Source: Candidatus Woesearchaeota archaeon
GTDB taxonomy: Archaea > Nanobdellota > Nanobdellia > Woesearchaeales > UBA583
DNA length: 64,000 nucleotides
Assembly: GCA_023898345.1 (NCBI GenBank)
Contig: CP060218.1
Span: 120,753 to 184,752 of the forward strand
Direction: 5' to 3'
Shown here: one piece after another, positions 2,731 to 63,947 of the stretch
How the letters are laid out: each line of letters opens with the position of its first letter
How positions within the stretch are numbered: the stretch's first letter is position 1
The notes under the pieces: generated by a model
Told to the model about the DNA's origin: nothing
The model's input: only the letters and a program-made list of their open reading frames with translations
The model's database searches: none
Translations under genes and position numbers: made by a program

Positions 2731-2803
2731 TTTAAGGAAATATTATCAGATGCAAAAGTCTGGATTATGCTAAAAAGAATTACAGACAAGAATATTATTG
2801 CTT

Positions 2804-7681: not shown

Positions 7682-8255
7682 TTTTTTGAATATTCTTTTT
7701 GAAATTTTTTTCTTTATATGATTTGTCTTGAAAATTTTCACCTTTTTTTGTTTTTTCAAAGCGTAGTTTTTTCTGTATGAAATATCTCTACAATTCGCTC
7801 CCATTCACGTACACTTGCTCGACGTTGTTGAGGTGGTCGCTTTCATTACGCCAAGCTTCTCGTGCGGGTGTGTTCGGGTCGAGTGTCCAGGGATAAAATG
7901 TTTGTCCTGTCGGCGAGAGGAGTTTGAGATCAAGGTCGTTGATGAGGTTGGCTCCGGGAACGTCGTACCAAGCTAGCGTTACTTTGAGCGAGCTTTGTGC
8001 GCTGATGTTGATTGCGTACACGTCCACGTTAGAGATGTCTGAAATGTTTGCTTCTAGGAATGTTCCGTTGATGATTCGGTCCACAGCTCCTTTGGCGTTG
8101 AGCAGTCCGTACCCGTTCACGTAGTCGGGGCCGTCGATTACTTGGTCACCATTTCCGGTTCTATTTAGGTCTTCGTCGTAGCCGGACAGGTTCCACTGTT
8201 CGAGCATGAGCGCGATGGTTCCGCTGACGTGTGGCGCTGACATGGACGTGCCACA
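7675..8255 (-). repeat. Shared GC-rich subtilase 3' module + downstream promoter segment (copy C)
   Basis: See 3090-3745. Its 5'-most part (8186-8255) also matches window positions 1-78. Confidence 0.85.
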
Positions 8256-12049: not shown

Positions 12050-12050
12050 T

Positions 12051-12308
12051 TTAGTTTTTTCCCTTTCTTTTTTTCAAGGCAAGTCCTAGACTGTATATGC
12101 CAACTCCTGTTAGGAATGCATTGAGAGTCACAAAAAGCCAAGTGTGGTAATAGAGGGCATAGATGAAAAGAGCAAAGGAACCGTACACATTAAGTAGGAC
12201 GAATGTTATGTGGTTTTTCCCTAGTTTGTTAAGAGTTTCTAGGACAACAGATAGTGCAATTGCAATGATTCCAGATATTCCAAAAAGGAGAAGGATTTCT
12301 TCGATCAT
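12051..12308 (-). CDS. small membrane protein (3 TM), hypothetical
   Basis: Hydrophobic 85-aa ORF. Its start overlaps the stop of the upstream gene and its stop abuts the asnB start, so it is probably co-transcribed. Confidence 0.5.
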   Translation of the reverse strand: MIEEILLLFGISGIIAIALSVVLETLNKLGKNHITFVLLNVYGSFALFIYALYYHTWLFVTLNAFLTGVGIYSLGLALKKRKGKN

Positions 12309-12691
12309 TTTTTTGGTCTGCTTTCCTCTGGCATGGCACTAAGATGGGCCAAAGTACATTTTATGTCGAAATAATTTTCTTCTTCACTAAGTTGAGCTTT
12401 GATGAGCATAAGACTCTTAAGATTTTTATTTGTTATTATTGAGAGTATTTTCTCTAATTTTTCTTCTCCTATGACGTCGGATGCTCGAATAAAGCTTTTT
12501 GTAATGAGGTCTAGAATATGTTTTTCAACGGTTCCTTGTTCAAAGTTTCGTGCTTCTCCAATTTCTTGAAGGCTTTTTCCTTGGAGGAATAGTTTAAGGG
12601 TTAGTTCGAGAGTTTCTGAAAGTCTTTTTTTTTTGAATGTCTCTTGAGACCATGTAATCCAGCCAGAATTTTTTAGTTTGAGATTTTTCAT
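12305..12691 (-). CDS. helix-turn-helix domain protein (HTH_40-like), hypothetical
   Basis: LQGKSLQEIGEARNFEQGTVEKHILDL resembles the C-terminal HTH found in helicase-associated HTH_40 domains. Weak by-eye call. Confidence 0.45.
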   Translation of the reverse strand: MKNLKLKNSGWITWSQETFKKKRLSETLELTLKLFLQGKSLQEIGEARNFEQGTVEKHILDLITKSFIRASDVIGEEKLEKILSIITNKNLKSLMLIKAQLSEEENYFDIKCTLAHLSAMPEESRPKK

Positions 12692-18428: not shown

Positions 18429-18468
18429 CGTTTTATAATAATTTTTGTACTACATTTAAGTTTCAAAA

Positions 18469-18600
18469 GTAAATAAAGAAATTGCTAAAATGTCCTTATT
18501 CCAATCGAAGCAGAGCTCCGGAGCATTATGGAAATTTTCAAGAGGCGATTTCATTACTCCCCGCGGGGTGGTTGCAGCAGAGCTGCTGGTATAATGCCCA
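18469..18600 (+). repeat. repeated intergenic element, copy A (with candidate micro-ORF 18490-18594)
   Basis: gtaaataaagaaattgctaaaATGtccttattccaatcgaagcagagctccggagcattatggaaattttcaagagg... aligns with 33017-33105. A partial copy is at 19307-19325 and an inverted, shortened copy at 56630-56684. Confidence 0.6.
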
Positions 18601-28323: not shown

Positions 28324-28623
28324 TCAGAAAATCAAAGATTTTTCACTAAAATCTGGCTGGCCTGCAATTCTTTCCCATTGGTGTCCAGAAGAAAAACATC
28401 CATAAATACCATGCAGAAAATAAGGGGAGTTTATTATCTTTGAAACTATTTCTTTGCTTGATGAGTTGCTACTTTTATGTTGCTTCTGTTTTGCTTCTTC
28501 TTCAAGTTTCTCAAGTGTGGAAAAAATAAATAGTAGGACTTCTTTGTTCCAATCGAAGTTCGCAGTAAATTTCTGCATTCTTTCTAACATTTGGTCTTCA
28601 ATATCGAAGGATATTTTAGCCAT
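28324..28623 (-). CDS. hypothetical protein (possibly the 5' part of a gene split by the IS)
   Basis: 99-aa ORF ending 9 nt from the IS-proximal inverted repeat. No domain recognised. Confidence 0.3.
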   Translation of the reverse strand: MAKISFDIEDQMLERMQKFTANFDWNKEVLLFIFSTLEKLEEEAKQKQHKSSNSSSKEIVSKIINSPYFLHGIYGCFSSGHQWERIAGQPDFSEKSLIF

Positions 28624-30008: not shown

Positions 30009-30491
30009 AACAGGAGAGTTATCTTTTTTACCTTTATATATCTTTGCTCTTCCTACGCTTTGCTTATGGAGTACTTTTTTTAACTTTAGGAAGAAAACTC
30101 GTAAAACTGGATTTGAGATAACTTTACGTAAATAGTTGGTTTTCCAATTTATTCATAGAAAAAAAATGTCAATGGTGCTAGGTAGACAGCCTTGTGGAAA
30201 TTGAAAGCGAGTTGTCCAACACTTGAACCAATCTCAAGGATTTTATTATCTTTCAACTCTAAATCCTGAATCTTGAACTTAACGATTTTTGATTGTTGAT
30301 GTCTAAGCTTTAAACTTTTAGTTTTGAGCTCTGAATGTACCAAATCCCTTGGTGAATTTCAATGTTTCTACATTAAAACTAAGGAGTCGAACCCTAAGTT
30401 GTGATCAATATTCAGTTGATCTTAATGTTCTCAATTGAGAACGAAGAGACAACAATTTACAATTTTCGTCTATCTAGCACCTAAGTAATTT

Positions 30492-32927: not shown

Positions 32928-33016
32928 TTTTTTCTTTGTTTAAGATCTTTTATCAATGTTTTGTTCTCATGGAAAAGTCAAGATGTGGGACTCTGTCTAT
33001 TCATTCAAATTGAAAA

Positions 33017-33105
33017 GTAAAGAAATCGCTAAAATGTGTCTATTCCAATCGGAGCCGAGCTCCGGGGCCTTACAGCAATTTTCAAGATGAAATTTCTAAC
33101 TCCTG
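33017..33105 (+). repeat. repeated intergenic element, copy B (with candidate micro-ORF 33034-33090)
   Basis: gtaaagaaatcgctaaaATGtgtctattccaatcggagccgagctccggggccttacagcaattttcaagatga aligns with copy A at 18469. Confidence 0.6.
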
Positions 33106-33191
33106 GCTGGGCTTGGGCAATCTTTTATTATTAGTTTTAAGGATGCCTCAAAAGCTTGCCTTGGAGATAGTCTTTTTTGGCAATTTCTCTT

Positions 33192-41188: not shown

Positions 41189-41217
41189 TTTTTTTTTTTT
41201 TTTTTTTTTTTTTTTTT
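41189..41217 (+). terminator. 29-nt poly(T) tract; probable oligo-T terminator of the SulP gene
   Basis: An uninterrupted T29 starts 20 nt after the SulP stop and ends 1 nt before the stop of the convergent gene 41219..41566. Confidence 0.5.
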
Positions 41218-49479: not shown

Positions 49480-50196
49480 TTATTCTCTTTTAGCTTTAAA
49501 ACAATATTGTTCATAACTTACTTCCTTCGACAAAATGGGGTACACATATTCCCCTTCACTTCTTGTCAAAGAAAAATCCTTTAGAGACTTCTTTTTTTTC
49601 ATCGTTCCTAGACAAAAATAAGAGTCTGGAAAACAGACTTTTCTTTTTCTTTCCTGAATAAGTTCGAGATTAGCAAAGAATGAAAGAAGTACATTTTCTC
49701 CTCTTTTTATGGCATGTTTCATTCCACTTGCAACAGAAATTTCAAGGGACACAGCAGAGTTAAATTGGAAAATCAAAGAAAATCTAGCATTTGGAATAAA
49801 AACTCTTTTCTTAATAAAAAATAAATCTAAAAAACCTGTTTTTTTCAATTCCTGATTTACATAAATTAAAAACGGAGCAGTCTTTGACGTTGTGGAATGC
49901 AAATCAATAACATAGTCAAATTTTTCTAATTCCCTTTTGATAATCTTTGTAAGATTTCCTTCACAAGACTTTGAATCCTTAGAAAAAGCTCTATTCAAGT
50001 CCTCATCAATAAAACGTTTTTTCTGAGTAAAAGCTTGAGGATGAACAAGATAAAAAGAAATTTCTCCTTTCAAGAGATGCAGTTTTTTCAATCTTCTAAA
50101 CACATTCAATGAATAACTTTCATCTCCATGAACACACGCCAAAATGGCAATCTTTGGACCAGATAATCCTGAGTCAATAGTTCGCAGTAATTTCAT
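49480..50196 (-). CDS. succinylglutamate desuccinylase/aspartoacylase (AstE/AspA) family protein
   Basis: GPKIAILACVHGDE...DLNRAF...VIDLHST pattern. The first ATG is at 50196; the track start at 50202 is a TTG. Confidence 0.68.
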   Translation of the reverse strand: MKLLRTIDSGLSGPKIAILACVHGDESYSLNVFRRLKKLHLLKGEISFYLVHPQAFTQKKRFIDEDLNRAFSKDSKSCEGNLTKIIKRELEKFDYVIDLHSTTSKTAPFLIYVNQELKKTGFLDLFFIKKRVFIPNARFSLIFQFNSAVSLEISVASGMKHAIKRGENVLLSFFANLELIQERKRKVCFPDSYFCLGTMKKKKSLKDFSLTRSEGEYVYPILSKEVSYEQYCFKAKRE

Positions 50197-50372
50197 TTTC
50201 AAAGTTTAACTTAAAAAATTTGGAAGCAAAGGAATCGAACCTTCAAATTCCCATCATGAAGAAAAGTAAAACAAAAAAATTATTGACGCCAAGAAAAAAA
50301 GAAAGAAAAAAGAGAAAAAGAATCCATAAGAACTTTCTTTTTCTTTTTTCTTATAAGTTTTCTCATTTTACA

Positions 50373-50391
50373 CAATGACGAGACAAAGCTT
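50373..50391 (+). repeat. 19-bp direct repeat, left copy (caatgacgagacaaagctt)
   Basis: Exact match to 56799-56817. The two copies bracket the AT-rich islet. Confidence 0.9.
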
Positions 50392-50510
50392 CTAACAGTG
50401 AAGTTAAGCTAAAGTATTTCTTTACATTAAATAAAATTCTTAAAAATAAACTTCTAGGTTGATTATTGAACTAAGCTAAAACATAAATAAAAATCATAAT
50501 TATTTCATTC

Positions 50511-51701
50511 ATGCTAAAAAAAATAAAAGGAGAAACAATTAACTATATTTTTGAAAAAATTGAAAAAGATAATGAAATTACCTATTTGATTAATTTACTT
50601 ATAAACGGAACAAAAATAAATGAATTCTTTGAAATGCAGGAACACAACTGCTGTATTGATGCACCTGTTTTATATCATTCTTACAAATACTTTGAGAATA
50701 AGAAGAATGGTTCTTTTAATGGGAGATTTTTTATTTTAGTTTGTGGTTGTGGAGACGCAGGGTGTGGGGGTTATTATAAGGGAGTCCTTATTTCAAAGAA
50801 CGATAAAGAAATAATGCTAAAGTTTGATGAAGATTGGCAAAAAGAACAAATAATCCTGAAACTCTCTCAAAATGAATTTAATAAAGTTAACTTGCAATTT
50901 TATGACTTTGTTAAAAATCTTCCTAAGAGTTCACAAAGCATAAATATTTCATGTTTGGGAAGTCCAAACTCCTGTTTGAACTGGATGAATAATGAGTTTA
51001 GGTGGCAACCACAAGAAAAGATAGAGAACTTCTATGAAAATAAAAGGGAAAAACTTATTGAAAAAATAAAAATAATCTTAAGAGAGTCTGAGAAAGAAGG
51101 AATTATCAGTCCAACTGAAGAAATCCTAACTTGGTATAACGAGGACGAGGGGATGGAATCTGAGGAATATTTTTCTAAAATTGCAAAATTTTTAGCAAAG
51201 CGTACAATTATGCAGAAATCAAAGTTATTAGTTGTAAAGTACAAAAAGGATGAATGTAAAGATATAAAGTGGAATTATGAGACTTTTTTACAGAACTTTT
51301 TGAATTCTTTAAGAAGAATTGATGTCCGTGTCAAAAAGATAACTCTTAACGAGAAAGAATTTGAAGATATTCTATTAAAAAAAGGGAGTGAGAAGGATGA
51401 ACTTCTTAAAAAATATTATACAAAGAATGAAAATAATTCATTACATGATGCTCTAGAAAGAAAGGATTTGAAGCTATCTGTTGAATGTTATGATAAAAAG
51501 TATGAATGTATAATAAGGAATAACTTTAACTATGTGGATATTAAACCTATCCTAAAAATATGTAATAGTATTTTAAGTGATTATGGTAATAATTCTAAAT
51601 TCGTTAAGTTAGAAGCTGAGAAAGAAGTTTTTATATTTTTGTTGAGACCAAATCAATTAACTGCTATACAAAAAATTTGGAATAATTCTAAGTCAAAATA
51701 A
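50511..51701 (+). CDS. hypothetical protein (islet orphan)
   Basis: 396-aa, Lys/Asn/Ile-rich. The only notable motif is ILVCGCGDAGCGG. Confidence 0.45.
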   Translation: MLKKIKGETINYIFEKIEKDNEITYLINLLINGTKINEFFEMQEHNCCIDAPVLYHSYKYFENKKNGSFNGRFFILVCGCGDAGCGGYYKGVLISKNDKEIMLKFDEDWQKEQIILKLSQNEFNKVNLQFYDFVKNLPKSSQSINISCLGSPNSCLNWMNNEFRWQPQEKIENFYENKREKLIEKIKIILRESEKEGIISPTEEILTWYNEDEGMESEEYFSKIAKFLAKRTIMQKSKLLVVKYKKDECKDIKWNYETFLQNFLNSLRRIDVRVKKITLNEKEFEDILLKKGSEKDELLKKYYTKNENNSLHDALERKDLKLSVECYDKKYECIIRNNFNYVDIKPILKICNSILSDYGNNSKFVKLEAEKEVFIFLLRPNQLTAIQKIWNNSKSK

Positions 51702-51924
51702 ATCTGTTACGTATGTTCATCTCCTTCAGTGAGGTTTTGGGATTGTGGGGGTAGAAGAATATTAAATTTTCGTTTGAAAAAATTCTTGGCTGTCTTTAGA
51801 CCGAGAATGAATTGGGTAGATAATTTGTACAGAAATTTTGGCGTATTCATTTGAAACTTTGTAGAATCCTCTTCTTTTAAGAATGGGGAGTCTGGATTTT
51901 CCAAAATTTCAGTCAATTGGATGC

Positions 51925-52482
51925 TTAGGGTTTCTGAGTAATATATTTTTCAAAGTTATTTTGTTCAATCATGTTTTTTAGCTTCTTTTTCAAATTTCTA
52001 TAATATGTATTTCCCTTCTCACCTTCTTTGATGTCTTTGCAGATTTGATTTATTATATTGTTTATTTCATTAATAAAAATTGAATAGAATGCATCTCTAT
52101 CTATGTTAAATATGAAGGTTGTTTGCTCTAGGGTTTTATTATCTTCAATCTTAGTGTCTCTCTTAGTTCTAATGGATACTTTCTTCTCAGGTATATTTTC
52201 AAATAGAATTCCTTGAGAACCACATCCGAAATAGTATTTTGATATATTCTTGTCTAACATACTATCGATTATATCAGTAATGCATGTATTGTAAGGAAAA
52301 TCTTCTATCATATATTTATCAAAAAAATAGTATATACTATATCCAGACTCATATCTTGATTCTTCTCTAAGTTTTTTTGGTTCCAGAAGTTCAACTTTTT
52401 TATTTATTTGGTTGGCAACTTGAGTATAAATTTTCATATCAAATTTTTTTACGTCAAATACTTCTTCAATTTGTTTTATCAT
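51925..52482 (-). CDS. hypothetical protein (islet orphan)
   Basis: 185-aa ORF; no domain recognised. Confidence 0.45.
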   Translation of the reverse strand: MIKQIEEVFDVKKFDMKIYTQVANQINKKVELLEPKKLREESRYESGYSIYYFFDKYMIEDFPYNTCITDIIDSMLDKNISKYYFGCGSQGILFENIPEKKVSIRTKRDTKIEDNKTLEQTTFIFNIDRDAFYSIFINEINNIINQICKDIKEGEKGNTYYRNLKKKLKNMIEQNNFEKYITQKP

Positions 52483-52594
52483 CTGTATTTGGGAATCTTA
52501 ATTATAATTATAATTTCTACTTATAAGAATTAATTAGATTTCTTAAAACTATGTTAGGGTTTATATATAAATAGATTTAAAACCAACTTATTAT

Positions 52595-53740
52595 ATGGTT
52601 AGAAAATCAATACCAATAATGATATTTATATTAATGATTTTTAGTATAAATAGTTCTTTTGCATTAGATACAATTGGACCTAATATTCAAATTGTAAAAA
52701 ATGAAATAACTCCTGAACCAGTTGAACCAGGAAATGACATTACATTAAAAGTAATGATAACTAATTCAGGTGATGAGTTAGCAGAAAATATTAATATTAA
52801 TCCTCAAATAACTTCTCCTTTCTATTTTAAGAAAAGTGATTTCAATAAACAAGATTTTGCAATTTGTGGTGGTTGTTCTTATGATGCTACATATTATTTA
52901 TCAGTTAACTCTGATACTATTAGTGGAACCTATCCCTTGATATTTAATATAGAATATGAAGATGGACTAACAAAAGAAGAAACAATACTTATAAAAGTAA
53001 TTGGAGTTCCAGATATTGTAATTGATTATAATAAAGAAGAAATACAATATCCTGATGAGAATTTTGAAATAAAATTATCTATTGATAATATTGGAACAGG
53101 AAATGCAAGAAATATTAAACTTAATTCATTATCAGAAGATTTTTTACTTATTGGAACCCAAACAAAAGTTATCAATGAGATAAATGCTGACAACCAAAAA
53201 GAGATTAAATTAACTTTTCAATCAAATTCAAATCTTAATTCAGGATTATATAAAATACCATTTGAAATAACATATTTAGATGAGTTAGGTAATGAATTAA
53301 CAAAAGAATATTCTGTATCAATTAACATAAAAGATACTTCATCACTTGTTTTACAAAACTTAAAAGTTGAAAATTATCAAACTAATATTTTTGATGAAAT
53401 TATAATTACCGGAATTGTAGAAAATAATGGAGAAGGAAAAGCAGAAAATGTATATGCTTATATTGAAACTAATTTAGAGGGTTATGATAAATCTTTTATT
53501 GGTTCATTAAAAGCAGATGAAGATAGTCCAATACAATTCAAATTAAAATCAACATCAAGTGGTGATTTTCCTATAAAACTTATAATTACTTATGAAGATG
53601 ACAAAGGAGTTCATACATTAGAAGAAACTTTTGAAGTTAAAGTTACAAAACCTACAAGTAGATTATATACTATAATTGGAATTGTATTGTTGTTTGGAGT
53701 ATTTATTATAGCAAGACATTATATGAAAAGAAAAAAATGA
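52595..53740 (+). CDS. CARDB/COG1361-like surface protein with signal peptide and C-terminal TM anchor
   Basis: Repeated NxG(D/E)xxAxN beta-sandwich motifs (ITNSGDELAENININ; DNIGTGNARNIKLN; ENNGEGKAENVYAY), typical of the COG1361 proteins that precede MacB-like ABC genes in archaea. Confidence 0.62.
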   Translation: MVRKSIPIMIFILMIFSINSSFALDTIGPNIQIVKNEITPEPVEPGNDITLKVMITNSGDELAENININPQITSPFYFKKSDFNKQDFAICGGCSYDATYYLSVNSDTISGTYPLIFNIEYEDGLTKEETILIKVIGVPDIVIDYNKEEIQYPDENFEIKLSIDNIGTGNARNIKLNSLSEDFLLIGTQTKVINEINADNQKEIKLTFQSNSNLNSGLYKIPFEITYLDELGNELTKEYSVSINIKDTSSLVLQNLKVENYQTNIFDEIIITGIVENNGEGKAENVYAYIETNLEGYDKSFIGSLKADEDSPIQFKLKSTSSGDFPIKLIITYEDDKGVHTLEETFEVKVTKPTSRLYTIIGIVLLFGVFIIARHYMKRKK

Positions 53741-54945
53741 AAAAAATTGACTTACACTCATTAAAAACTACATTTTTCCTTGCTTGGAAAAATATTGTTG
53801 CAAGTAAAAAGACATTAGTTGTAATTATACTTGTATTATCATTGAGTTTTTTGAGTATTACATTTTTTTCAGCAATTATTGATGGTTTAGGTTATGCCTT
53901 TGAAGATAAATCAATAAATACAATTACAGGACATTTAACTATTGAACCAAATGATGATGAAACATATATTGAAAACCCTGATGAAATAATAAAAAAAATA
54001 AGAAGACTTGATGGAGTGTATGCAAGTTCAAGAATAGAAAAAGGAGTATCTGTTACTGATATGGATACAATTGTTAGTGGTCAAGCACTTTTTGTAGATA
54101 TAAATGATGAAGATAAAGTATCAATTTTTTCAGAAAATATTATTGAAGGGATAAGACTTACTAAAAATGTTGAAGATGAGATTATTATTGGTTCAGATTT
54201 AGTTAAGAAATATGCATCAGAAGATGATAATAAAAAACGATTAGATGTAAATGTTGGAGATAAAATAACTCTGCAATTTAACAATGGAGTTTCAAAAGAA
54301 TATAAAATAAGAGGAATATATAGAACTAATTCTGCTTTTAGTGATGGGTATATTTTAATGAATAAACAAGAATATGAAAAAGTATTTAATGAAAATTCAA
54401 ATATAGCATCATCTATATTAGTTAAATTACCCCAAAGAGGATTAGAAGAAGAATATAAATACAAATTAGTAGAACTTGGTATTAATGAACAAATAAATTC
54501 TTGGGAAACTAAAATTGGTAAAATTAGACAATTTACATCATCTCTTGAAATTACTAATAAGATAACTGGTGCAATAGGTCTTATTACTACATTTGCTACA
54601 ATTTATATTATTATTTTCATTAATGTAATGACAAAAAGAAAACAAATAGGGATTTTAAAAGCAGTTGGAATTAAAAAAAATATTATACTTGGTTCATATA
54701 TAATTCAATCATTAGTTTATGCAGTATTAGGTGTTTTAGTTGGAATTATAATTATTAAAATTTTAATGTTGTATTTTGCATCAAATCCTTTGAAGATGCC
54801 AATTGGTGATGTTTACCCATTAATTGATTTAAATAAATTACTTGTAGCATCAGCATCAATTATAGTTGCATCACTTATGGCTGGATATTTTCCTTCAAAG
54901 AAAGCAACAGAAGATAATATTTTAGATGCAATATTTGGTGGTTAA
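53737..54945 (+). CDS. ABC transporter permease (FtsX/MacB-like)
   Basis: N-terminal TM, a large extracytoplasmic domain and a C-terminal FtsX-type 3-TM bundle (RKQIGILKAVGIKK). 4-nt overlap with the upstream gene. Confidence 0.85.
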   Translation: MKKIDLHSLKTTFFLAWKNIVASKKTLVVIILVLSLSFLSITFFSAIIDGLGYAFEDKSINTITGHLTIEPNDDETYIENPDEIIKKIRRLDGVYASSRIEKGVSVTDMDTIVSGQALFVDINDEDKVSIFSENIIEGIRLTKNVEDEIIIGSDLVKKYASEDDNKKRLDVNVGDKITLQFNNGVSKEYKIRGIYRTNSAFSDGYILMNKQEYEKVFNENSNIASSILVKLPQRGLEEEYKYKLVELGINEQINSWETKIGKIRQFTSSLEITNKITGAIGLITTFATIYIIIFINVMTKRKQIGILKAVGIKKNIILGSYIIQSLVYAVLGVLVGIIIIKILMLYFASNPLKMPIGDVYPLIDLNKLLVASASIIVASLMAGYFPSKKATEDNILDAIFGG

Positions 54946-54947
54946 AA

Positions 54948-55655
54948 ATGAAAAATAATAATATTATAATTAAAGCAAATAATCTTGAAAGAGTATATGA
55001 TAATGGTAAAATTAAAACTATTGCTCTAAAAGATGTAAGTTTAGAAATTAATGAAGGTGAATTTGTAGCAATTATGGGACCAAGTGGAAGTGGGAAATCA
55101 ACAATTTTACACCAATTAGGATTACTTGATAATCCAACAAATGGTAAATTGATAATTGATAATGATAATGTATTAGAATTAAATGAAGAACAAAGAACAA
55201 GATTTAGATTAGAGAAATTAGGTTATGTGTTTCAATCATATAATTTAATTCCTGAACTTACAACAATTGAAAATGTATATGTTACTGCAATGGCACTTGG
55301 TGTTTCAAAAGAAGAATATATTAAAAATGCAATGGAAGTTTTGAAAAATGTTGGTCTTGAAAATAGAGAATATCATCTACCTTCTGAATTATCAGGTGGT
55401 CAGCAACAAAGAGTTAGTATTGCAAGAGCATTAGTAAATAAACCTAAAATATTATTCGCTGATGAACCAACAGCAAATCTTGATAGGGATAGTTCAGATA
55501 ATATTGTAAATTTATTTAGAAAATTAAACAAAGACTTTGGTCAAACAATTGTTATGGTAACTCACGAACTTGAAGAAGGTGAAAAAGCAGATAGGATTAT
55601 TTGGGTCAAAGATGGATTATTAGATAAAGATAGAATTAAAAAGAATAAACATTAG
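54948..55655 (+). CDS. ABC transporter ATP-binding protein (MacB/LolD-like)
   Basis: Walker A GPSGSGKST, Q-loop, signature LSGGQQQRVSIARAL, Walker B ILFADEPT, H-loop VTHE. Confidence 0.93.
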   Translation: MKNNNIIIKANNLERVYDNGKIKTIALKDVSLEINEGEFVAIMGPSGSGKSTILHQLGLLDNPTNGKLIIDNDNVLELNEEQRTRFRLEKLGYVFQSYNLIPELTTIENVYVTAMALGVSKEEYIKNAMEVLKNVGLENREYHLPSELSGGQQQRVSIARALVNKPKILFADEPTANLDRDSSDNIVNLFRKLNKDFGQTIVMVTHELEEGEKADRIIWVKDGLLDKDRIKKNKH

Positions 55656-55667
55656 AGTATATTAAAG

Positions 55668-56279
55668 ATGAGTAATTTAAAGTATATTAAACTTCAAGTT
55701 GAAATACCTAAAAGTATTTGGATATATAAGATTAGTAAAGAGTTCCCAGAAGAAATTATTACTTTAAATTACTCTAACCCATTATCTGAAACAAGAAGAC
55801 AAGTATTTTTATCAACAATTTCAAAGAAAAGTATCAAAGAAATTTATTTTAAACTTAATAAAGAAAAACAAATAAAAGATTTAGAAATGTTTGGAGATAA
55901 TATAAAATTAATTTTCCAACTTAATTTTTTACAAAAGATTATACATCAAAAACTAACTATAATATTTCCAGTTACTATTCACGATGGTTATGCTACAATA
56001 GAAATCTTTGCTGATGAAAGTCAAATAAAATTATTTGAAAAAGTATTTGGAAAGATTAAGATATTAAAAATCTCTGATGAAATTAATAAAAAGGAAAACT
56101 TAACATTAAAACAAAAAGAAATTTTAGAAACTGCTTATATGCTCGGGTTTTTTTCATATCCAAGAAAAATTTCATTAACACAGCTTGCAAAACATCTTAA
56201 AATATCAAAAGCAACCTTATCAGAAAATTTAAGAGTTGCTGAAAATAAAATTATCTCTAATTTATTTTTAGAAAAATAG
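55668..56279 (+). CDS. HTH_10 (Bat-type) DNA-binding protein
   Basis: C-terminal LTLKQKEILETAYMLGFFSYPRKISLTQLAKHLKISKATLSENLRVAENKII matches the archaeal HTH_10 pattern. Confidence 0.7.
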   Translation: MSNLKYIKLQVEIPKSIWIYKISKEFPEEIITLNYSNPLSETRRQVFLSTISKKSIKEIYFKLNKEKQIKDLEMFGDNIKLIFQLNFLQKIIHQKLTIIFPVTIHDGYATIEIFADESQIKLFEKVFGKIKILKISDEINKKENLTLKQKEILETAYMLGFFSYPRKISLTQLAKHLKISKATLSENLRVAENKIISNLFLEK

Positions 56280-56629
56280 TTTTTTCTGCAAAACTACTAA
56301 GGCTCAAGCTAAGGTTATTTGGGATTTTTGCCCCAGTTTATAAATAACAGAGCTAAAATATATAAATTAATTGTTATTGACCATTAGTATTACTATAAAA
56401 GCACTTTGCTTTAATAGGCAAAAATTAGGGGGAATTTAATTTAATGAGTTAATCATTAATTATTATTTAATTATTGTGGATTTCAAAAAATTAGCGATAC
56501 CAAAATTTATTTACTAACTTTTGGCATCTGAGGATGTTTTTCTAAACACTCTTTGAAAATTTTGAAGGTTTTTCTATAATTCTCTATAAAATTTTTACCT
56601 CTAAAATTCTTATTTCTTTAACTAAGTAT

Positions 56630-56684
56630 TATACTACTGTGCTCTGCTCCGCTTGGGACATGCATGTTTAAGTGCTTTATTTAC
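56630..56684 (-). repeat. repeated intergenic element, copy C (inverted, shortened)
   Basis: The reverse complement gtaaataaagcacttaaacatgcATGtcccaagcggagcagagcacag aligns with copies A and B, with a 6-nt gap after the ATGTCC. Confidence 0.45.
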
Positions 56685-56798
56685 ATTCCGAATGAATACA
56701 CATAGGTGGCCATTCCCTCAGCTACGAAGAAGGAGAAGGATTTTCAACATTAGAGTACTTACCTCTAAAGTCTTCTCTTACGGAGATTTATGGGGGGT

Positions 56799-56817
56799 CA
56801 ATGACGAGACAAAGCTT
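56799..56817 (+). repeat. 19-bp direct repeat, right copy (caatgacgagacaaagctt)
   Basis: Exact match to 50373-50391. It overlaps the first bases of the cysS TATA box. Confidence 0.9.
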
Positions 56818-56843: not shown

Positions 56844-58280
56844 ATGTTAAAATCCATTTATTTTTACAACACCAAGACTCGCAAGAAAGAGGAGTTCAAA
56901 GAGAAAGAAACGGGCATTGTAAAAATATACACGTGTGGTCCGACTGTGTACTCGACGCAGCATATAGGAAACATGCGCGCGGCCATAACGGCAGATATTC
57001 TTCATAGAACTCTTGAATATTTTAAGTACACTGTAATAGATGTCATCAACATTACAGACGTCGGCCATCTCACTGACGATGATCATGATGCTGGTGAAGA
57101 TAAGATGCTCAAAGCTGCAAGGAAAGAAAAGAAAGGCCCTTATGAGATTGCACGTTACTATGAAGAAAAATACATTGCAGATACAAAAAAACTTCATATC
57201 AAAGGACCAAAGTATAGGCCTAGAGCAACAGAGCATATTAAGGAGCAGATTGAAATGATAAAGCTTCTTGAGGAAAGGGGACATACGTATAGGACATCAG
57301 ACGGGCTTTATTTTGATACTTCAACATTCAAGGAGTACGGTGCGCTTTCAGGACAAAAACAGGAGGATAAAAAAGCAGGTGCAAGGGTAAAGCTTGATAG
57401 TGAAAAGAGGAATCCTTCTGATTTTGCACTTTGGAAGTTTCTTACGGGAGAAAATGAACACCACATTATGAAATGGGACTCTCCTTGGGGAATAGGTTTT
57501 CCGGGCTGGCATATAGAATGTTCTGCTATGTCGCATAAATATTTGGGCTCGGAGTTTGACATTCACATGGGTGGAATTGAGCATATTCCTGTTCATCATG
57601 AAAACGAGATAGCTCAAAATGTTTGTTCTGGTGCTATTTCTGGAATCTCTTTTTGGATGCACTACCAACATATGATGATTGACAAAAATAAAATGTCAAA
57701 ATCTTTGGGTAATGTGTACTCGCTTGAAGACTTGGAAAAAAAAAGTTATTCTCCTTTGGCTTTACGGGAATTGTGTTTACGAACTCATTACCGCAAAACT
57801 ATGAACTTTACGTTTGACGCACTTGATGCTGCTCAAACAAATGTCAAAAAGCTTAATGAATTCAAAAAGAGAATTGAGGAGATCAAGGTCACAGAAAATG
57901 CAGATGAAACAGTGAGGAAACTTTTCAATACCTATCTTGACAAATTTGAGCAGGCCATGAAAGATGATTTGAACACGGCGCTTGCTCTGGCGGCAGTTGA
58001 TGAGTTCATAACTGAAATAAACCGAAAAAGAATTTTTTCAGAGCAAGATAAAGAAACTGTTCTAGAATTTTTACGGCGAACGGATAAAGTTTTGGCTTTA
58101 CTTGAGGAAGAAGAAAGAATTCCTTCTGAGGTAGAAAAATTAGCAAGGGAGCGGGAAGTGGCAAGAGAAAAAAAAGAGTTTGGAGAAGCTGATAAACTGC
58201 GAGATGAAATTAAGGGTAGGGGCTATGATGTAAAAGATGATAAGAGCTCAAAACTTGGTTATCGTCTTACTAAAATATGA
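56844..58280 (+). CDS. cysS: cysteinyl-tRNA synthetase
   Basis: HIGN (HIGH) motif, KMSKS and the Zn-binding Cys/His pattern (CGPT...WHIEC). Confidence 0.93.
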   Translation: MLKSIYFYNTKTRKKEEFKEKETGIVKIYTCGPTVYSTQHIGNMRAAITADILHRTLEYFKYTVIDVINITDVGHLTDDDHDAGEDKMLKAARKEKKGPYEIARYYEEKYIADTKKLHIKGPKYRPRATEHIKEQIEMIKLLEERGHTYRTSDGLYFDTSTFKEYGALSGQKQEDKKAGARVKLDSEKRNPSDFALWKFLTGENEHHIMKWDSPWGIGFPGWHIECSAMSHKYLGSEFDIHMGGIEHIPVHHENEIAQNVCSGAISGISFWMHYQHMMIDKNKMSKSLGNVYSLEDLEKKSYSPLALRELCLRTHYRKTMNFTFDALDAAQTNVKKLNEFKKRIEEIKVTENADETVRKLFNTYLDKFEQAMKDDLNTALALAAVDEFITEINRKRIFSEQDKETVLEFLRRTDKVLALLEEEERIPSEVEKLAREREVAREKKEFGEADKLRDEIKGRGYDVKDDKSSKLGYRLTKI

Positions 58281-60821: not shown

Positions 60822-61925
60822 ATGGGAATAGACTTAACTCAGAGATTAAAACTGAGAAAATTCATCAAAAATCTTCTGCAGTACAGAGGCCGACACACAG
60901 AGTTAGTTTCTGTGTACATACCAGCGGGTTACGACATAACAAAGATAGTGAATAACCTTCAAGATGAACAAGGAACGGCAACAAACATTAAAGACGCCAA
61001 AACCTCAAAGTCCGTCATCTCAGCTCTTGAGAGAATGATTCGAAGTCTCAAAACTTTCTCAGATACTCCAAAAAATGGGCTTGCAATCTTTTCAGGAAAT
61101 GTTTCTGATAAGGATAATGTAGATAATTTTCAAGTCTTTTGGATAGAACCTCCAGAACCTCTCAATCTCAAACTTTACAGATGTGATCAAAAATTTATTA
61201 TCTATCCTCTTGATGAGATGGATGCCAATGAAACCACTTATGGACTCATAGCAATCGACAAAGGAGAAGCAACTGTTGGCCTGCTTATCGGTTCTTCCAT
61301 AAAAACCCTCAAAAATCTTCACTCGAATGTTCCGGGAAAGTTCAAAGCAGGAGGACAGTCGGCACAGCGTTTTGCAAGAATCAGAGAAGGAGCAGCAGTT
61401 GAATTCTATAAAAGAGTTGCTGATGTTATGATTCAAGAATTTACCTTCATGACAGAGCTTAAAGGACTTATTGTAGGTGGTCCTGGAACGACAAAGAACA
61501 ACTTTGTAGACGGAACTTACATGAACGAAGACTTGAAAAAAAAAATAAAAGGAATAAAAGATATCACTTATACAAATTCTTTTGGTCTTAAAGAACTCGT
61601 GGACAAATCAGAGGATGTGCTTAGCGACGACGAAATAATGACTGAGAGACGTATTCTTCAACGCTTTCTAGAAACGCTGGGAAAAGATACGACAAAAATC
61701 GTGTACGGAGTGAAGAATACAACTATGGCATTAGAAATGGGAGCGGTTGAAGATCTCATTATTATTGATTCAGAAGTTGAAGAAGAACAACTTGAGAAAA
61801 TGTGTGAACTGCAAGAACAGAGTCGTTCAAATTTGCATTTAGTTACAGACAGGACACCTGAAGGAGTACAATTCAAAGCACTTGGTGGAATAGGAGCAAT
61901 CCTTCGTTATCCTATTAGCACATAA
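60822..61925 (+). CDS. prf1: peptide chain release factor aRF1
   Basis: NIKD/NIKS-type motif (TATNIKDAKT), GGQ motif (KAGGQSAQRFARIRE), eRF1 three-domain order. Confidence 0.92.
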   Translation: MGIDLTQRLKLRKFIKNLLQYRGRHTELVSVYIPAGYDITKIVNNLQDEQGTATNIKDAKTSKSVISALERMIRSLKTFSDTPKNGLAIFSGNVSDKDNVDNFQVFWIEPPEPLNLKLYRCDQKFIIYPLDEMDANETTYGLIAIDKGEATVGLLIGSSIKTLKNLHSNVPGKFKAGGQSAQRFARIREGAAVEFYKRVADVMIQEFTFMTELKGLIVGGPGTTKNNFVDGTYMNEDLKKKIKGIKDITYTNSFGLKELVDKSEDVLSDDEIMTERRILQRFLETLGKDTTKIVYGVKNTTMALEMGAVEDLIIIDSEVEEEQLEKMCELQEQSRSNLHLVTDRTPEGVQFKALGGIGAILRYPIST

Positions 61926-61979
61926 ATTCTTTTTTTTTTTTAATAACAACAATTTGAAGAAATTCTGAAAAAAATCTTC

Positions 61980-63947
61980 CTAAATAAGGAAAAGACTTAC
62001 AACAATTAAGAGAACCACAATTCCAATACCAACAAGCAAAAGCTTTGTCGTGTTATCAAAGGAATACTTGGAAAGTGATGAAACAGGATTGTTTTGATCG
62101 TTGCTGCTGCTGTTGTTGTCCGAAACATTTGTTGATGGAATTGGCTTTACTTCAATTCCTGTTCCTGAACTACAATTTAAAATTGTGAGGTCTGTTTCTC
62201 TTGTTTGTAGGGCGGAACCATCTGAAAGGGCAGCTTTTTGGATGACTGTGTATGTACCTGGCGCTAGGTCTGAGATGTCTAGTACTAGATTGCGCTGTTC
62301 TGTGTCGTCAAGGTCCAATTCAAAAAGGTCGCTTTCAGCACTAATTGATGTTCCTCTAATTGCAGCTGTAATTCTGGCGTCCTCATCGTAGCGTCCGAAG
62401 TTTGTTATTCTCATGAAAGCGTATACTTTGTCGTCACACTTGATTGTTATTGGGCTTACAGAGTAAGAATTTACTTTCAACATTTTACTTGGTCTTTGAA
62501 TGGAGATGTCTTCTAGCTCTGTAATCTCGTCGTCTCCATAATCAAGTCGAATTTCAAGTGTGTGAGTTCCGTCGGAAGCATCTTGAGGAATGTCGAAGCG
62601 AAGTGTGATTGTTTCGTCATCATTTACATCTAAAAGGAATGTTGAACTGCTTTCGTACACGTCACTGTTCGCGGAGTCAATATCGTAGATTGTTCCAGAA
62701 ACACTTACATCTCTGAAAATTTTAGATCCTTGATTGTGTACTGTGACATTAACTTCGAGATTACTGTCGGGTTCAATGTTGTCGTCGAAAGTTATTTTCT
62801 CAATATACACGTCTCCTACAACTTTTACTTCAACGCGAAGTGAATCTAGTTCTTCATCTGTCGAATCGAGGACTCGTAATTTTCCATAGTAACTTCCCGT
62901 TTTTTGGTCATCGGGAATTGAAACTTTAATTTCAACAACGTCGTCATCGTCACCTCCTAGGTCAAGGGAAGAAGGGCTAAAGGAAAATGCTGCTTTTGAG
63001 ATCGTATCAGAACTACTTTCTCCTTCGAGGTCATCTTCAAATTCAAAATGCAAATCTCTTACTTCAATGTTTCCGGTGTTTTGAATTTCAAATTCATAGT
63101 TATCATCAACGTATTCTCCTTCTTCGCCGATAATTGTAAGAAGGCCATTTCTGACGTCGTATTTGTTCTGGTCAAATTCTATTTGTAAATCTCCTCCTGT
63201 TACTTCAACAAGGAAAGTCCACTCGAAGTTACCTTGATCACTGCGTACTCGAAAAATTCCTTCGTATGTATCAATTTCTACATCATCAGGAATATTAACT
63301 TTAATTTCAACACTTCGAGAACGTCCGGGGTCTAATTCGTCAAATTCATCGGGGTCAAAACTTATTTTGCTTTCTCGAATTTCGTCACCAGTATCAATTC
63401 CTTCTAGATCGTTAACGATTTCAAATTTGAGGTTTGTTAATGTAATATTTCCAGTATTTTCAAAACGAAAACGATCAGTTGTTCTTTCGTCAAGATCTCC
63501 TTCAACAAGCATTTCATCAGCATTTACAAGTGTGAGGCTGATGTCGCTCTGTGCTGTGATTGCAGCTGTAAGTGTAAAATTTAGTTTTTGGGTTGAATTA
63601 TCCTGATTGGTGATAAGGATACTGCCAGTGTAATTTCCTGCTTTGGCATCTGTTTCGAAGCTGTAGGAAATAGAACGGGACTCGGATGCTTTTAGCTCTG
63701 TTACTGTGCTTTGATTGAGAGAAACAGAAATACTGTCGGCAGCTCTAACTAAATTTGAGGCTGTTAAGGTTAAAGAAATATTTTCATCTCCTGTGTTTGT
63801 TATGGTGAAACTTCCTTCGCCTGTTGTTCCTTCAATGAGGGAAAGAACTGCTCCGGAGGGGTCTACAGAAAAATTTTGTGTAGCATAAGCAGCGCCAAAG
63901 CTTGTGAAAAGCAGGGCAAGGGTTAGTAGTGTGGTAATGAGTTTCAT
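61980..63947 (-). CDS. large acidic surface (S-layer-candidate) protein with repeated beta-sandwich domains
   Basis: Signal peptide (LTLALLFTSFGAAYA), a C-terminal TM anchor and internal repeats (FRFENTGNITLTNLKFEIVNDLEG...VEIKVNIPDD versus YEFEIQNTGNIEVRDLHFEFEDDLEG...VEIKVSIPDD). Confidence 0.65.
   Translation of the reverse strand: MKLITTLLTLALLFTSFGAAYATQNFSVDPSGAVLSLIEGTTGEGSFTITNTGDENISLTLTASNLVRAADSISVSLNQSTVTELKASESRSISYSFETDAKAGNYTGSILITNQDNSTQKLNFTLTAAITAQSDISLTLVNADEMLVEGDLDERTTDRFRFENTGNITLTNLKFEIVNDLEGIDTGDEIRESKISFDPDEFDELDPGRSRSVEIKVNIPDDVEIDTYEGIFRVRSDQGNFEWTFLVEVTGGDLQIEFDQNKYDVRNGLLTIIGEEGEYVDDNYEFEIQNTGNIEVRDLHFEFEDDLEGESSSDTISKAAFSFSPSSLDLGGDDDDVVEIKVSIPDDQKTGSYYGKLRVLDSTDEELDSLRVEVKVVGDVYIEKITFDDNIEPDSNLEVNVTVHNQGSKIFRDVSVSGTIYDIDSANSDVYESSSTFLLDVNDDETITLRFDIPQDASDGTHTLEIRLDYGDDEITELEDISIQRPSKMLKVNSYSVSPITIKCDDKVYAFMRITNFGRYDEDARITAAIRGTSISAESDLFELDLDDTEQRNLVLDISDLAPGTYTVIQKAALSDGSALQTRETDLTILNCSSGTGIEVKPIPSTNVSDNNSSSNDQNNPVSSLSKYSFDNTTKLLLVGIGIVVLLIVVSLFLI

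Follow-up and report, generated by a model that had tools for sequence, protein, structure and literature searches.

The closest described counterparts of the locus analysed here include the cryptic integrated elements (CIEs) of Thaumarchaeota, whose att sites have a median length of 17 bp (range 8-26 bp), whose targets are intergenic in 15 of 68 elements, and whose sizes extend down to 2.6 kb (Krupovic et al. 2019; PMC6563490). A 19-bp intergenic att site therefore lies within the known range for mesophilic archaea (PMC6563490). Elements carrying SSV-type ('suicidal', Phage_integr_3) integrases often become trapped in the chromosome, and when they integrate, their integrase gene is cut into int(N) and int(C) portions that abut the att copies (PMC7253208, PMC8371274). 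In bacteria, mobility by host functions has been proposed for the H47 island of E. coli (Azpiroz et al. 2011; Azpiroz & Lavina 2017; PMC3191183, PMC5426353).

The locus, a 6.4-kb islet lodged between two housekeeping genes in a 64-kb stretch of Woesearchaeota DNA (the window), resembles each of these in part. Like the CIEs of mesophilic archaea, it has short flanking direct repeats, mobility-unrelated cargo and a distinct composition (PMC6563490). CIEs, however, are defined by an integrase and the islet has none; it is also composite, with a host-like right arm. Its link to SSV-type elements is its operon, which on another contig, L107, directly adjoins a gene of this integrase family. Unlike those elements, whose att sites are usually in tRNA genes, the islet lies in an intergenic promoter region, and no int fragments are detectable from 50392 onward or up to 56798. 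As in H47, the islet is small, flanked by direct repeats and devoid of an encoded site-specific recombinase (PMC3191183, PMC5426353), but H47 is bacterial, its repeats are longer, imperfect and made up of several segments of identity, and its excision and integration have been shown experimentally, whereas the islet is known from sequence and looks fixed. Its operon resembles archaeal MacB/LolCDE-type operons, with an FtsX-type permease about 55% identical to those of Methanococcoides, Methanolobus, Ca. Ainarchaeum and Woesearchaeota; unlike them, the islet copy was imported recently and stands in surroundings of foreign composition.

The islet is bracketed by two exact + strand copies of the 19-mer CAATGACGAGACAAAGCTT, one at 50373-50391 and the other at 56799-56817. 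These are the only two occurrences in the window, as a sequence-only reading of this DNA had described, and no third copy was found there even when three mismatches were allowed. The match can be extended to 23 nt with one mismatch, as CAATGACGAGACAAAGCTT[C/A]TAA. The left copy, the putative attL core, is followed by CTAACAG rather than a TATA box. The 3' end of the right copy, the putative attR core, abuts or overlaps the TATA-like TTATAAAG of cysS, 27 nt upstream of the ATG, which agrees with the earlier remark that this repeat runs into the cysS TATA box. The same reading had predicted that removing 50392-56817 would leave a normal divergent promoter region, and the deletion does leave 215 nt, with the cysS TATA intact, between the AstE/AspA-like gene on the left (49480-50196, - strand; Pfam AstE_AspA_cat) and cysS on the right (cysteine--tRNA ligase; 56844-58280, + strand; Pfam tRNA-synt_1e).

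At 19 nt or more, the remaining exact direct repeats of the window come from a family of subtilase paralogues at 1-8.2 kb, from a poly-T tract and from a single 20-mer that recurs after 90 nt (14260/14350). In windows simulated with a third-order Markov model, some exact direct repeat of at least 19 nt, mostly of low complexity, occurred in 29 of 300, and one of comparable complexity in four (1.3%). The earlier chance estimate of about 0.01 is thus right for a complex 19-mer. Both copies lie within about 170 nt of the edges of the compositional anomaly, and the estimated probability of a chance origin for such a pair is therefore negligible, at about 1e-6. A repeat common among genomes would have undone the sequence-only interpretation, and the 19-mer is no such repeat: in 596 Gb of GTDB genomes there are five unrelated matches, against about four expected by chance (an estimate), and in IMG/VR a single unrelated one. 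The 19-bp repeat around the islet is real, and it is probably an old integration scar.

GC content inside the bracketed segment is 22-28%, against about 35-37% in the core, and tetranucleotide distance peaks at 0.45-0.53, against a window median of about 0.19. The 19-mer pair encloses the sole strong compositional (tetranucleotide and GC3) anomaly of the window. The claim that it brackets exactly the low-GC segment is confirmed for the low GC inside and refined at the edges: the extreme deviation (GC3 0.08-0.13) is limited to 52595-56279, and the drop in GC begins at about 49.5 kb, already across the AstE-like gene (31% GC). Codon usage, one of the measurements proposed earlier, separates the operon from two ORFans to its left, whose GC3 of 0.24-0.25 is host-like (host genes range from 0.17 to 0.63, typically about 0.3) and whose low GC sits in codon positions 1 and 2. 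This suggests that the ORFans have a history different from the operon's. The bracketed segment is composite rather than a single homogeneous insert, and comprises in order the two ORFans (50511-52482), the 3.8-kb operon (about 52500-56285), a 345-nt AT-rich spacer and about 170 nt of host-like DNA. With at least two compositionally distinct modules and a host-like right arm, the suspicion of an event more complex than a single insertion was well founded.

The first ORFan, orf396 (50511-51701, + strand; 396 aa, GC3 0.25), contains a small CxCGDxGCxG domain matching phrog_8242 (function unknown), the match being confined to the N-terminal part at approximately residues 19-137. Profile and sequence searches, including Pfam and NCBIfam, gave no recombinase, replication or defence match for it. 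The second ORFan (51925-52482, - strand; 185 aa, GC3 0.24) has no detectable family. The profile searches suggested earlier for these two orphans therefore returned no recombinase or replication-protein family in either. To the right of the operon, the AT-rich non-coding spacer (56286-56631) has no ORF of at least 23 aa, no Rfam match and no homology to the other operon loci compared. It is followed by copy C (56632-56706, + strand), a degenerate copy, with host-like GC, of a host upstream element whose copies A and B lie at 18440-18589 and 32971-33120, both on the - strand. Copy C was found independently, by a profile of the other two copies (E=1.9e-5), in accordance with the earlier statement that the final ~170 nt before the right border have a core-like composition and hold this element. 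Spacer and copy C stretch together leave a gene-free gap of 564 nt to the left of cysS, against a median gap of 54 nt, and this gap is possibly a deletion scar.

The compositionally extreme core of the islet (52500-56285, + strand; GC3 0.08-0.13) is delimited by DNA homology to other contigs and consists of a promoter and four genes. The promoter region (52546-52574, + strand) holds an AAACTATGTTAGG motif followed by a TATA-like TTTATATATAAATA, invariant in all five aligned contexts; AAACTATGTTAGG is unique within the window and is a candidate operator. The first gene (52595-53740, + strand) encodes a 381-aa CARDB-domain protein (Pfam CARDB, E=2.7e-13) that to the eye has a signal-like hydrophobic N-terminal stretch and a hydrophobic C-terminal anchor. 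Then come genes for a 402-aa FtsX/MacB/LolC-type ABC permease (53737-54945, + strand; Pfam FtsX at residues 278-394, NCBIfam lolCE) and a 235-aa LolD/MacB-like ABC ATPase (54948-55655, + strand; Pfam ABC_tran, NCBIfam LolD). lolCE and LolD are the top NCBIfam matches for the pair, yet fall under the curated equivalog cut-offs; by their domain matches, the FtsX-family permease and cognate ABC ATPase of a MacB/LolCDE-type exporter operon are present. The last gene (55668-56279, + strand) encodes a 203-aa HTH_10 regulator with a bacterio-opsin-activator-type HTH (Pfam HTH_10, E=7e-18). Wherever the surroundings of a close permease copy were inspected, a CARDB protein and an HTH_10 regulator occur with it. 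The operon is self-contained and probably self-regulated.

Copies of the operon 76-92% identical at the DNA level occur in five unrelated contexts, on Nanoarchaeota contigs of 23-28% GC: L111 (92%), L110 (87/83%), L117 (83-87%), L109 (80.6%) and L107 (76.6%). These contexts include positions after UvrB, after a type I R-M/OLD cluster, and after small ORFs that trail copper-ATPase, BolA and glutaredoxin genes. The genes flanking the operon in L111 have the same GC3 as the operon (0.08-0.13). Relatives of the permease are graded, at 94, 91, 88, 86, 84, 76 and 65% identity, and are followed by Methanosarcinales and DPANN sequences at about 55%. CysS, on the other hand, forms a single cluster of conspecific copies at least 90% identical, with the next relative at 64% and nothing between. 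By these comparisons the operon is clearly horizontally shared, and is a loan from much more AT-rich Nanoarchaeota relatives. Operon GC3 and the shared copies support, for the operon, the earlier view of the segment as foreign or accessory DNA. On contigs that cover the end in question, DNA homology sets in at 52500-52545 on the left and stops at 56277-56285 on the right. These limits of the shared unit, at about 52500 and 56285, do not coincide with the 19-mers but fall short of the repeats by 2.1 kb and 0.5 kb, and the 19-mer is absent from the other operon-bearing loci. Because the shared unit is only 3.8 kb long and ends inside the repeats, a single 6.4-kb element is something we infer. 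In L107, 108 nt past the operon, lies a gene for a 462-aa protein matching Phage_integr_3, the archaeal SSV-type integrase (28.4 bits, against a curated cut-off of 27), and beyond it a block of mobile-element-like genes at 16-23% GC. An integrase directly adjoins the operon once, in L107; most contexts have none adjacent.

No integrase, recombinase or transposase was detected in any ORF of the segment by Pfam, PHROGs, NCBIfam, PADLOC and PDB sequence searches. A tblastn search with the L107 integrase likewise gave no similarity to the segment, and no integrase fragment in or beside it. The absence noted at first sight is supported. An SSV-type provirus or plasmid with a partitioned integrase was rejected, there being no int(C) inward from attL and no int(N) into attR; the frame across the left 19-mer stops after six codons, and a 65-aa ORF across the right copy has no family match. 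A transposon, IS or casposon was rejected as well: there are no terminal inverted repeats, no transposase and no Cas1. When the inner ends are aligned in inverted orientation, the score is at best 20 (null mean 21.8); the operon ends score 25-27, without separate calibration. Moreover, 19 bp exceeds typical target-site duplications. An element using host Xer/dif (IMEX) was rejected for want of dif-like inverted arms around a short spacer, as judged by dyad symmetry; attL, attR and the reconstructed attB and attP show no dyad symmetry above shuffled controls. Of the features of a tyrosine-recombinase-type element, the locus has flanking direct repeats and, for the operon, foreign origin, but not the integrase gene. 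It does have the combination of flanking direct repeats and no recombinase gene that characterises an H47-like recombinase-less island.

The exact AstE-like protein is encoded on nine conspecific contigs, and, apart from the stub of L002, the islet is present on each conspecific contig extending to the repeat junctions. As the islet is otherwise universal among these contigs and the species lacks close relatives, neither an empty site nor a circular junction nor AstE-cysS adjacency was found in the conspecific contigs and data searched; the right-junction 25-mer is absent from JGI metagenomes. To the right of 56806-56810, L002 (SRR1171179) matches the window at 99.99% identity; leftward of this point it is unrelated, which places its breakpoint within the right 19-mer. 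The junction sequence of L002, TCACAGCAGAGCCAAAGCTT, resembles the 19-bp core at 14-15 of 20 positions (counted by eye); the left half of the element differs there, and cysS is unchanged. At just 55 nt, the stub could be an artefact of assembly. A second contig, L114, stops at 56808 and comes from SRR1171181, numerically adjacent to the run of L002; its end could instead be an effect of a neighbouring poly-G length variant.

We propose, at about even confidence, that the segment is a decayed or trans-mobilised cryptic integrated element that entered by site-specific recombination at the 19-bp core. The host is a DPANN archaeon of about 36% GC, with nearest relatives named Nanoarchaeota by NCBI. 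The element would have entered the divergent AstE-cysS promoter region by Campbell-type recombination, with the core abutting the cysS TATA duplicated as attL and attR and the cysS promoter left intact. Its payload would be the operon, with promoter/operator, CARDB surface protein, MacB/LolC-type permease, ABC ATPase and HTH_10 regulator, which circulates among much more AT-rich Nanoarchaeota (23-28% GC). The recombinase may later have been lost, possibly leaving the 564-nt gene-free stretch as a scar, or may have acted in trans, and the islet would now be immobile and fixed in the sampled population. The 19-mer would then be the crossover site, both ORFans and the operon would have arrived on one element, and the integrase would presumably have been lost. 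The att-type or target-duplication origin suggested by the sequence-only reading is putative; it gains from the L002 breakpoint inside the right copy and the integrase beside the operon in L107, but the operon ends lie off the repeats. Counting against the integrated-element reading are the lack of an integrase and of an empty site, the absence of the 19-mer at other operon loci, the host-like GC3 of the two ORFans, the host-like ~170 nt inside the right repeat with its copy of a host-resident element, and reconstructed att sites with no dyad symmetry beyond chance.

Foreign DNA, circular or linear, that shared some 19 bp with the cysS promoter region could instead have been inserted by host recombination (short-homology or RecA/RadA-independent), creating the flanking repeat without any dedicated recombinase, as proposed for H47. 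We consider this unlikely. It accommodates the missing recombinase, the 19-mer without dyad symmetry and the many operon contexts, mostly without an adjoining integrase, and has a precedent in a small direct-repeat-flanked island that is recombinase-less yet mobile (PMC3191183, PMC5426353); it requires, however, that donor and target happened to agree exactly over 19 bp. The 19-mer is missing from all other operon-bearing loci, and the operon adjoins an integrase in L107. Rather improbable is a separate reading in which the core containing CAAAGCTT at the cysS promoter is an integration hot spot used repeatedly in this DPANN lineage. An SSV-family integrase would act on it in trans, and the islet and the L002 sequence would be alternating occupants. 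If true, the integrase would be carried by other elements or pass between co-resident Nanoarchaeota, and integrase-less cargo islets would still be mobilisable.

Similarly doubtful, and a little more so, is the notion that the operon and, separately, the ORFans entered a variable intergenic region through junctions elsewhere (about 52500 and 56285), the 19-mer pair being a coincidence or an unrelated small duplication. The mismatch between the shared-unit ends and the 19-mers, the composite composition, which suggests several events, and the 10% of simulated windows with some repeat of at least 19 nt are in keeping with it. The rarity of complex repeats in the simulations (1.3%), the position of the pair within ~170 nt of both anomaly edges, the clean 215-nt promoter region left by its removal and the L002 breakpoint all argue against it. 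A cis-regulatory role for the 19-mer, in which selection rather than recombination history keeps an operator or upstream promoter element of orf396 and cysS identical, is very improbable. In its favour, each copy precedes a + strand gene, the right one is contiguous with the cysS BRE/TATA region and identity continues into TT[C/A]TAA. Against it, the left copy has no following TATA box and lies 120 nt from the orf396 ATG, nearer to which orf396 has an AT-rich region of its own. Nor is there a third copy in 64 kb at up to three mismatches, and the left half differs in L002 though cysS is unchanged. That the segment is native, its low GC reflecting membrane-protein and Lys/Asn/Ile-rich amino-acid usage rather than horizontal acquisition, we regard as almost certainly wrong. 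The host-like GC3 of the ORFans, with low GC in codon positions 1 and 2, and the AT-rich AstE-like neighbour (31% GC) fit it, but the operon GC3 is far beyond the host range, and its 76-92% identical copies sit in unrelated contexts, in organisms with a CysS identity of 64% or less. For the operon, GC3, graded permease relatives and shared DNA effectively refute a native origin, which could at most apply to the ORFan module.

DPANN archaea live in dependence on other cells and with tiny genomes, and to our knowledge their acquisition of genes is poorly documented. The locus offers a clean, datable example of a whole surface-protein/ABC-transporter operon imported, with its own regulator, by a DPANN archaeon from a Nanoarchaeota lineage far richer in AT; it sits in a promoter region with the essential cysS undisturbed and is fixed in all sampled populations. 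Its occurrence in at least five other contexts, one beside an SSV-family integrase, points to a small accessory gene pool shared among co-occurring DPANN archaea. If the 19-bp core turned out to be a working att site used in trans, recombinase-less 'parasitic' islands would extend to archaea. With a borrowed operon core and a repeat that is probably an old integration scar, the locus is otherwise useful but unsurprising, a fairly ordinary genomic islet. A minor feature of the host-side DNA is a 30-nt A-rich/T-rich imperfect palindrome (50293-50364; 73% complementary, 12-nt loop), 9 nt to the left of the left repeat.

The window holds exactly two exact copies of the 19-mer CAATGACGAGACAAAGCTT, one at 50373-50391 and the other at 56799-56817, both on the + strand, as the sequence-only reading had described. 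Identity between the two copies stretches to 23 nt with one mismatch, and no third copy is present in the 64 kb when up to three mismatches are allowed. Apart from this pair, exact direct repeats of at least 19 nt in the 64 kb are limited to segments of subtilase paralogues (1-8.2 kb), a poly-T run and two 20-mers spaced 90 nt from each other. In third-order Markov simulations of the window (n=300), an exact direct repeat of at least 19 nt arose in 29 of 300 cases and one of comparable sequence complexity in only 4 of 300, so the earlier chance estimate of about 0.01 for such a pair is fair. The 19-mer is not a common genomic repeat. It has five matches in the GTDB genomes (596 Gb), where by our estimate about four are expected by chance, and one in IMG/VR, in a phage coding sequence; all are unrelated. 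The repeat is real and non-random. An imperfect A-rich/T-rich 30-nt palindrome (50293-50364), 73% complementary around a loop of 12 nt, stops 9 nt short of the left copy, and the poly-G tract directly left of the right copy (56793-56798) varies in length, being GGGGGG in the window and GGGG in L116, a contig from SRR23924734. An uninterrupted 29-nt poly-T run lies at 41189-41217.

The islet is flanked on the left by the AstE/AspA-like gene (49480-50196, -) and on the right by cysS (56844-58280, +), with archaeal-type flagellin and aRF1 genes among those nearby. GC inside it falls to 22-28%, against ~35-37% outside, and its tetranucleotide distance from the remainder of the window reaches a maximum of 0.45-0.53, where the median is near 0.19. 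The deviation in k-mer and codon usage that was suspected is thus present, and the description of an AT-rich, foreign-looking islet holds for its four-gene operon, whose GC3 of 0.08-0.13 is far under that of the host (observed range 0.17-0.63, typically ~0.3). The two ORFans differ: their GC3 is host-like (0.24-0.25), and their low GC comes from codon positions 1 and 2. The window's first 3 kb are also GC-poor (~29%).

The bracketed segment is composite. Its left part holds orf396 (50511-51701, +), a 396-aa ORFan with only a small N-terminal CxCGDxGCxG domain, which it shares with phrog_8242 and four short, uncharacterised proteins, and orf185 (51925-52482, -), a 185-aa ORFan with no match found. 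The operon follows at ~52500-56285 and encodes a CARDB-domain protein, an FtsX/MacB-type permease, an ABC ATPase and an HTH_10 regulator. Beyond it lie an AT-rich stretch (56286-56631) in which neither an ORF nor an Rfam match occurs and a right arm (56632-56798), which together form part of a 564-nt gene-free gap (median gap 54 nt). As the sequence-only reading noted, the last ~170 nt inside the right border are host-like in GC and contain copy C of a repeated element. Contigs of three independent assemblies (SRR14234113, SRR14234111 and the UBA MAG GCA_002505525.1) break off at 51827-51853, between the ORFans. No repeat of at least 15 nt is found at that spot; the breaks hint at further population heterogeneity, or may reflect a drop in coverage.

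The repeated element, ~100-150 nt long, is represented by copy A (18440-18589, -), copy B (32971-33120, -) and the degenerate copy C (56632-56706, +), which is recovered at E=1.9e-5 by a profile made solely from A and B; a weak further copy lies at 28504-28558 (-). Copies A, B and C each stand upstream of a same-strand gene, and the three genes (MATCAP-like, HEAT-repeat and cysS) are unrelated. The 10-bp palindrome GCTCCGGAGC is present in copies A and B. The element has no match in Rfam, and its weak alifold energy leaves a structured RNA unsupported; it is possibly an upstream module that binds a regulator.

Relatives of the permease are graded in identity (94, 91, 88, 86, 84, 76 and 65%), followed by proteins of Methanosarcinales and DPANN at ~55%. 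On contigs from other samples the operon stands in five different contexts. In L109 and L110 it lies downstream of uvrB (DNA identity to the window 80.6% and 87/83%, respectively), in L111 downstream of a type I R-M/OLD-like cluster (92%), and in L107 behind small ORFs that come after genes for a copper-ATPase, BolA and glutaredoxin (76.6%). In L117 (83-87%) the ABC ATPase gene is separated from the HTH_10 gene by an additional 2-hydroxyacid dehydrogenase gene (2507-3517), which shows that the operon is itself being remodelled. L117 belongs to the Nanoarchaeota MAG GCA_020430385.1, whose accession is adjacent to that of GCA_020430405.1, a conspecific MAG carrying the islet. On each contig long enough to include the end in question, homology starts at 52500-52545, just upstream of the invariant AAACTATGTT(A/C)GG-TATATATAA promoter region, and ends at 56277-56285, at the HTH_10 stop codon.

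Since the operon-bearing contigs of other genomes have 23.5-28% GC, and in L111 the operon and its flanking genes share a GC3 of 0.08-0.13, it is native to much more AT-rich Nanoarchaeota and recently imported into the host of the window. These comparisons identify the enclosed DNA as accessory and its 3.8-kb core as a recent horizontal import. The predicted cargo combines a CARDB protein, secreted or anchored, with an ABC exporter resembling MacB/LolCDE and with the HTH_10 regulator, which probably acts on the conserved candidate motif AAACTATGTTAGG beside the TATA box. A role in export or at the cell surface is plausible in an episymbiotic archaeon.

The islet encodes no recombinase. None of its ORFs matches a recombinase, transposase, replication or defence family in Pfam, PHROGs, NCBIfam, PADLOC or PDB, in agreement with the absence of an integrase noted from the sequence. 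Profile searches with the two ORFans give no recombinase or replication role for either: Pfam, NCBIfam, PADLOC and PDB are empty, and PHROGs returns only the N-terminal domain of unknown function. An exhaustive HMMER search with the ORFans gave four weak matches, all to small proteins, and AlphaFold models predicted from their single sequences were too poor to use (pLDDT 35 and 46). No viral relatives were found of the permease or orf396 in IMG/VR, or of orf396 or orf185 in GenBank phages. Reading frames through both 19-mer copies do not resemble the int(C) and int(N) fragments that a split SSV-type integrase would leave, the ends of the islet and of the operon lack the terminal inverted repeats of a transposon or casposon, and the reconstructed junctions (attB, TTTCTCATTTTACACAATGACGAGACAAAGCTTATAAAGACTCTCTC; attP, GATTTATGGGGGGTCAATGACGAGACAAAGCTTCTAACAGTGAAGTT) show no dif-like dyad symmetry above shuffled controls.

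An RNA gene as integration target was likewise rejected, ARAGORN and Rfam being empty in the window and at both junctions; no tRNA gene is detected across the 64 kb. A tRNA-like 3' end does occur at 50222-50262 (-), between the AstE-like gene and the left repeat and ~110 nt from the latter, with a T-arm (GAAGG-TTCGATT-CCTTT), an acceptor-like GCTTCCA and then oligo-T. Neither program calls a tRNA or fragment there, the 5' half is absent nearby, and reading the T-arm-like motif (50231-50241, -) as a tRNA fragment is unsupported. A second T-loop-like sequence, GGTTCGACTCC, lies at 30383-30393 (-).

Elsewhere, the operon does adjoin an integrase. In L107, a 462-aa protein starts 108 nt past the HTH_10 stop, and its C-terminal domain is Pfam Phage_integr_3 (archaeal SSV-type integrase; 28.4 bits, curated cut-off 27). 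A tblastn search of the window with this protein found no match, and no att repeats surround the integrase within the 17.5 kb covered of the 24,143-nt contig. Beyond it, a block of 16-23% GC encodes an AAA_14/DUF4143 ATPase, a VRR_NUC nuclease, a DUF6602 protein and a UvrD/PDDEXK helicase-nuclease; with the integrase these occupy L107:8956-17497, probably an integrated element or defence island of a ~27% GC archaeon.

Sampling of the species comprises one contig of 1.54 Mb, two MAGs at NCBI and numerous Logan contigs. Conspecific contigs were sought with five kinds of query: CysS and its allelic variants, the AstE-like protein, the U32 peptidase and HTH_10. Conspecific CysS copies form one cluster at 90% identity or above, separated by a gap from the nearest outside the species in a 5.8-billion-protein set. 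As those proteins are only 64% identical, and are named by NCBI as from a Nanoarchaeota or Woesearchaeota archaeon, the host is a DPANN archaeon for which no close relatives have been sequenced. In JGI metagenomes, identity to CysS does not exceed 48%, and synteny is lacking. Every conspecific contig reaching either border contains the islet sequence, with virtually no polymorphism inside, except L002; in the populations sampled, the islet is fixed. Neither an empty site nor a circular junction was found in these contigs, which are otherwise collinear with the window. Of the 77 substitutions that distinguish the window from the UBA MAG, 71 fall in a hypervariable segment at 61834-62900, inside the gene for a 655-aa CARDB-like surface protein (61980-63947, -).

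L002, a 36-kb contig from SRR1171179, is 99.99% identical to the window rightwards from 56806-56810, a breakpoint within the right repeat. Its first 55 nt (TTAAGCGTTCATCAATTATGTCTTAGCACATTAGAACAGAGATTCACAGCAGAGC, 38% GC) stand directly before CAAAGCTTATAAAG-cysS, where the window has the right end of the islet, and the junction TCACAGCAGAGCCAAAGCTT is core-like at 14-15 of 20 positions (counted by eye). The stub has no match in the window, any fetched locus or IMG/VR, and searches with it, the 19-mer and a 25-mer in GTDB genomes, JGI metagenomes and IMG/VR returned chance matches or nothing. L114, from the numerically adjacent run SRR1171181, stops at 56808, also within the right repeat; the poly-G length variant beside the repeat could be an alternative cause of this break.

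The islet most likely arose by Campbell-type site-specific integration at the 19-bp core in the AstE-cysS promoter region. Integration would have duplicated the core, giving putative attL and attR and keeping the cysS TATA box, and the integrase would afterwards have been lost or have acted in trans. We favour this mechanism because core length and intergenic target fit known archaeal att sites: those of mesophilic archaeal integrated elements have a median of 17 bp and are intergenic in 15 of 68 cases (PMC6563490), similar to the 19 bp and intergenic target here. It is further favoured by the integrase adjoining the operon in L107, by the L002 breakpoint within the right copy, and by the clean 215-nt promoter region that excision would leave, a remainder computed as the sequence-only reading had anticipated. 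That the pair is an unrelated or chance repeat would be compatible with the simulated repeats of this length; it encloses the compositional anomaly with ~170 nt precision on either side, however, and a chance origin is therefore negligible. The 19-mer might also be a duplicated regulatory element, given the place of its right copy beside the cysS TATA box; its only two copies in the window bracket the anomaly.

Four points count against a simple integration model. The unit common to other genomes is smaller than the bracket, the ORFan module is compositionally of different history, the arm inside the right repeat is host-like with a host-resident element, and an empty site was sought and not found among the contigs and relatives searched. 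A native origin would suit the host-like GC3 of the two ORFans and applies to them only, the operon being far below the host range. Short-homology insertion without a recombinase, of the kind proposed for the H47 island of E. coli (PMC3191183, PMC5426353), would agree with the lack of a recombinase gene in the islet; the L107 integrase speaks for Campbell-type integration instead. A more novel reading, in which the cysS promoter is an integration hot spot served in trans and held by different elements in turn, is rather unlikely. Integrase-less islets with short flanking direct repeats and decayed integrated elements are already well known; what is new here is that one occurs in a DPANN archaeon, with a cargo that is well defined and shared horizontally.

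Two further loci of the same archaeon deserve mention. Subtilase (Peptidase_S8) paralogues or fragments, all on the - strand (3203-3757, 3754-5175, 5449-7413 and 7788-8243), share exact repeats of up to 143 nt (for example 3480/5603, 6/8190 and 3494/8079) with 50-53% GC in a 36% GC genome. Just past the window's right end, Cpn10 and Cpn60_TCP1-family genes are adjacent at 10580-12540 of the contig L001; if of GroES/GroEL type, as we read them, the pair may be another horizontally acquired module.
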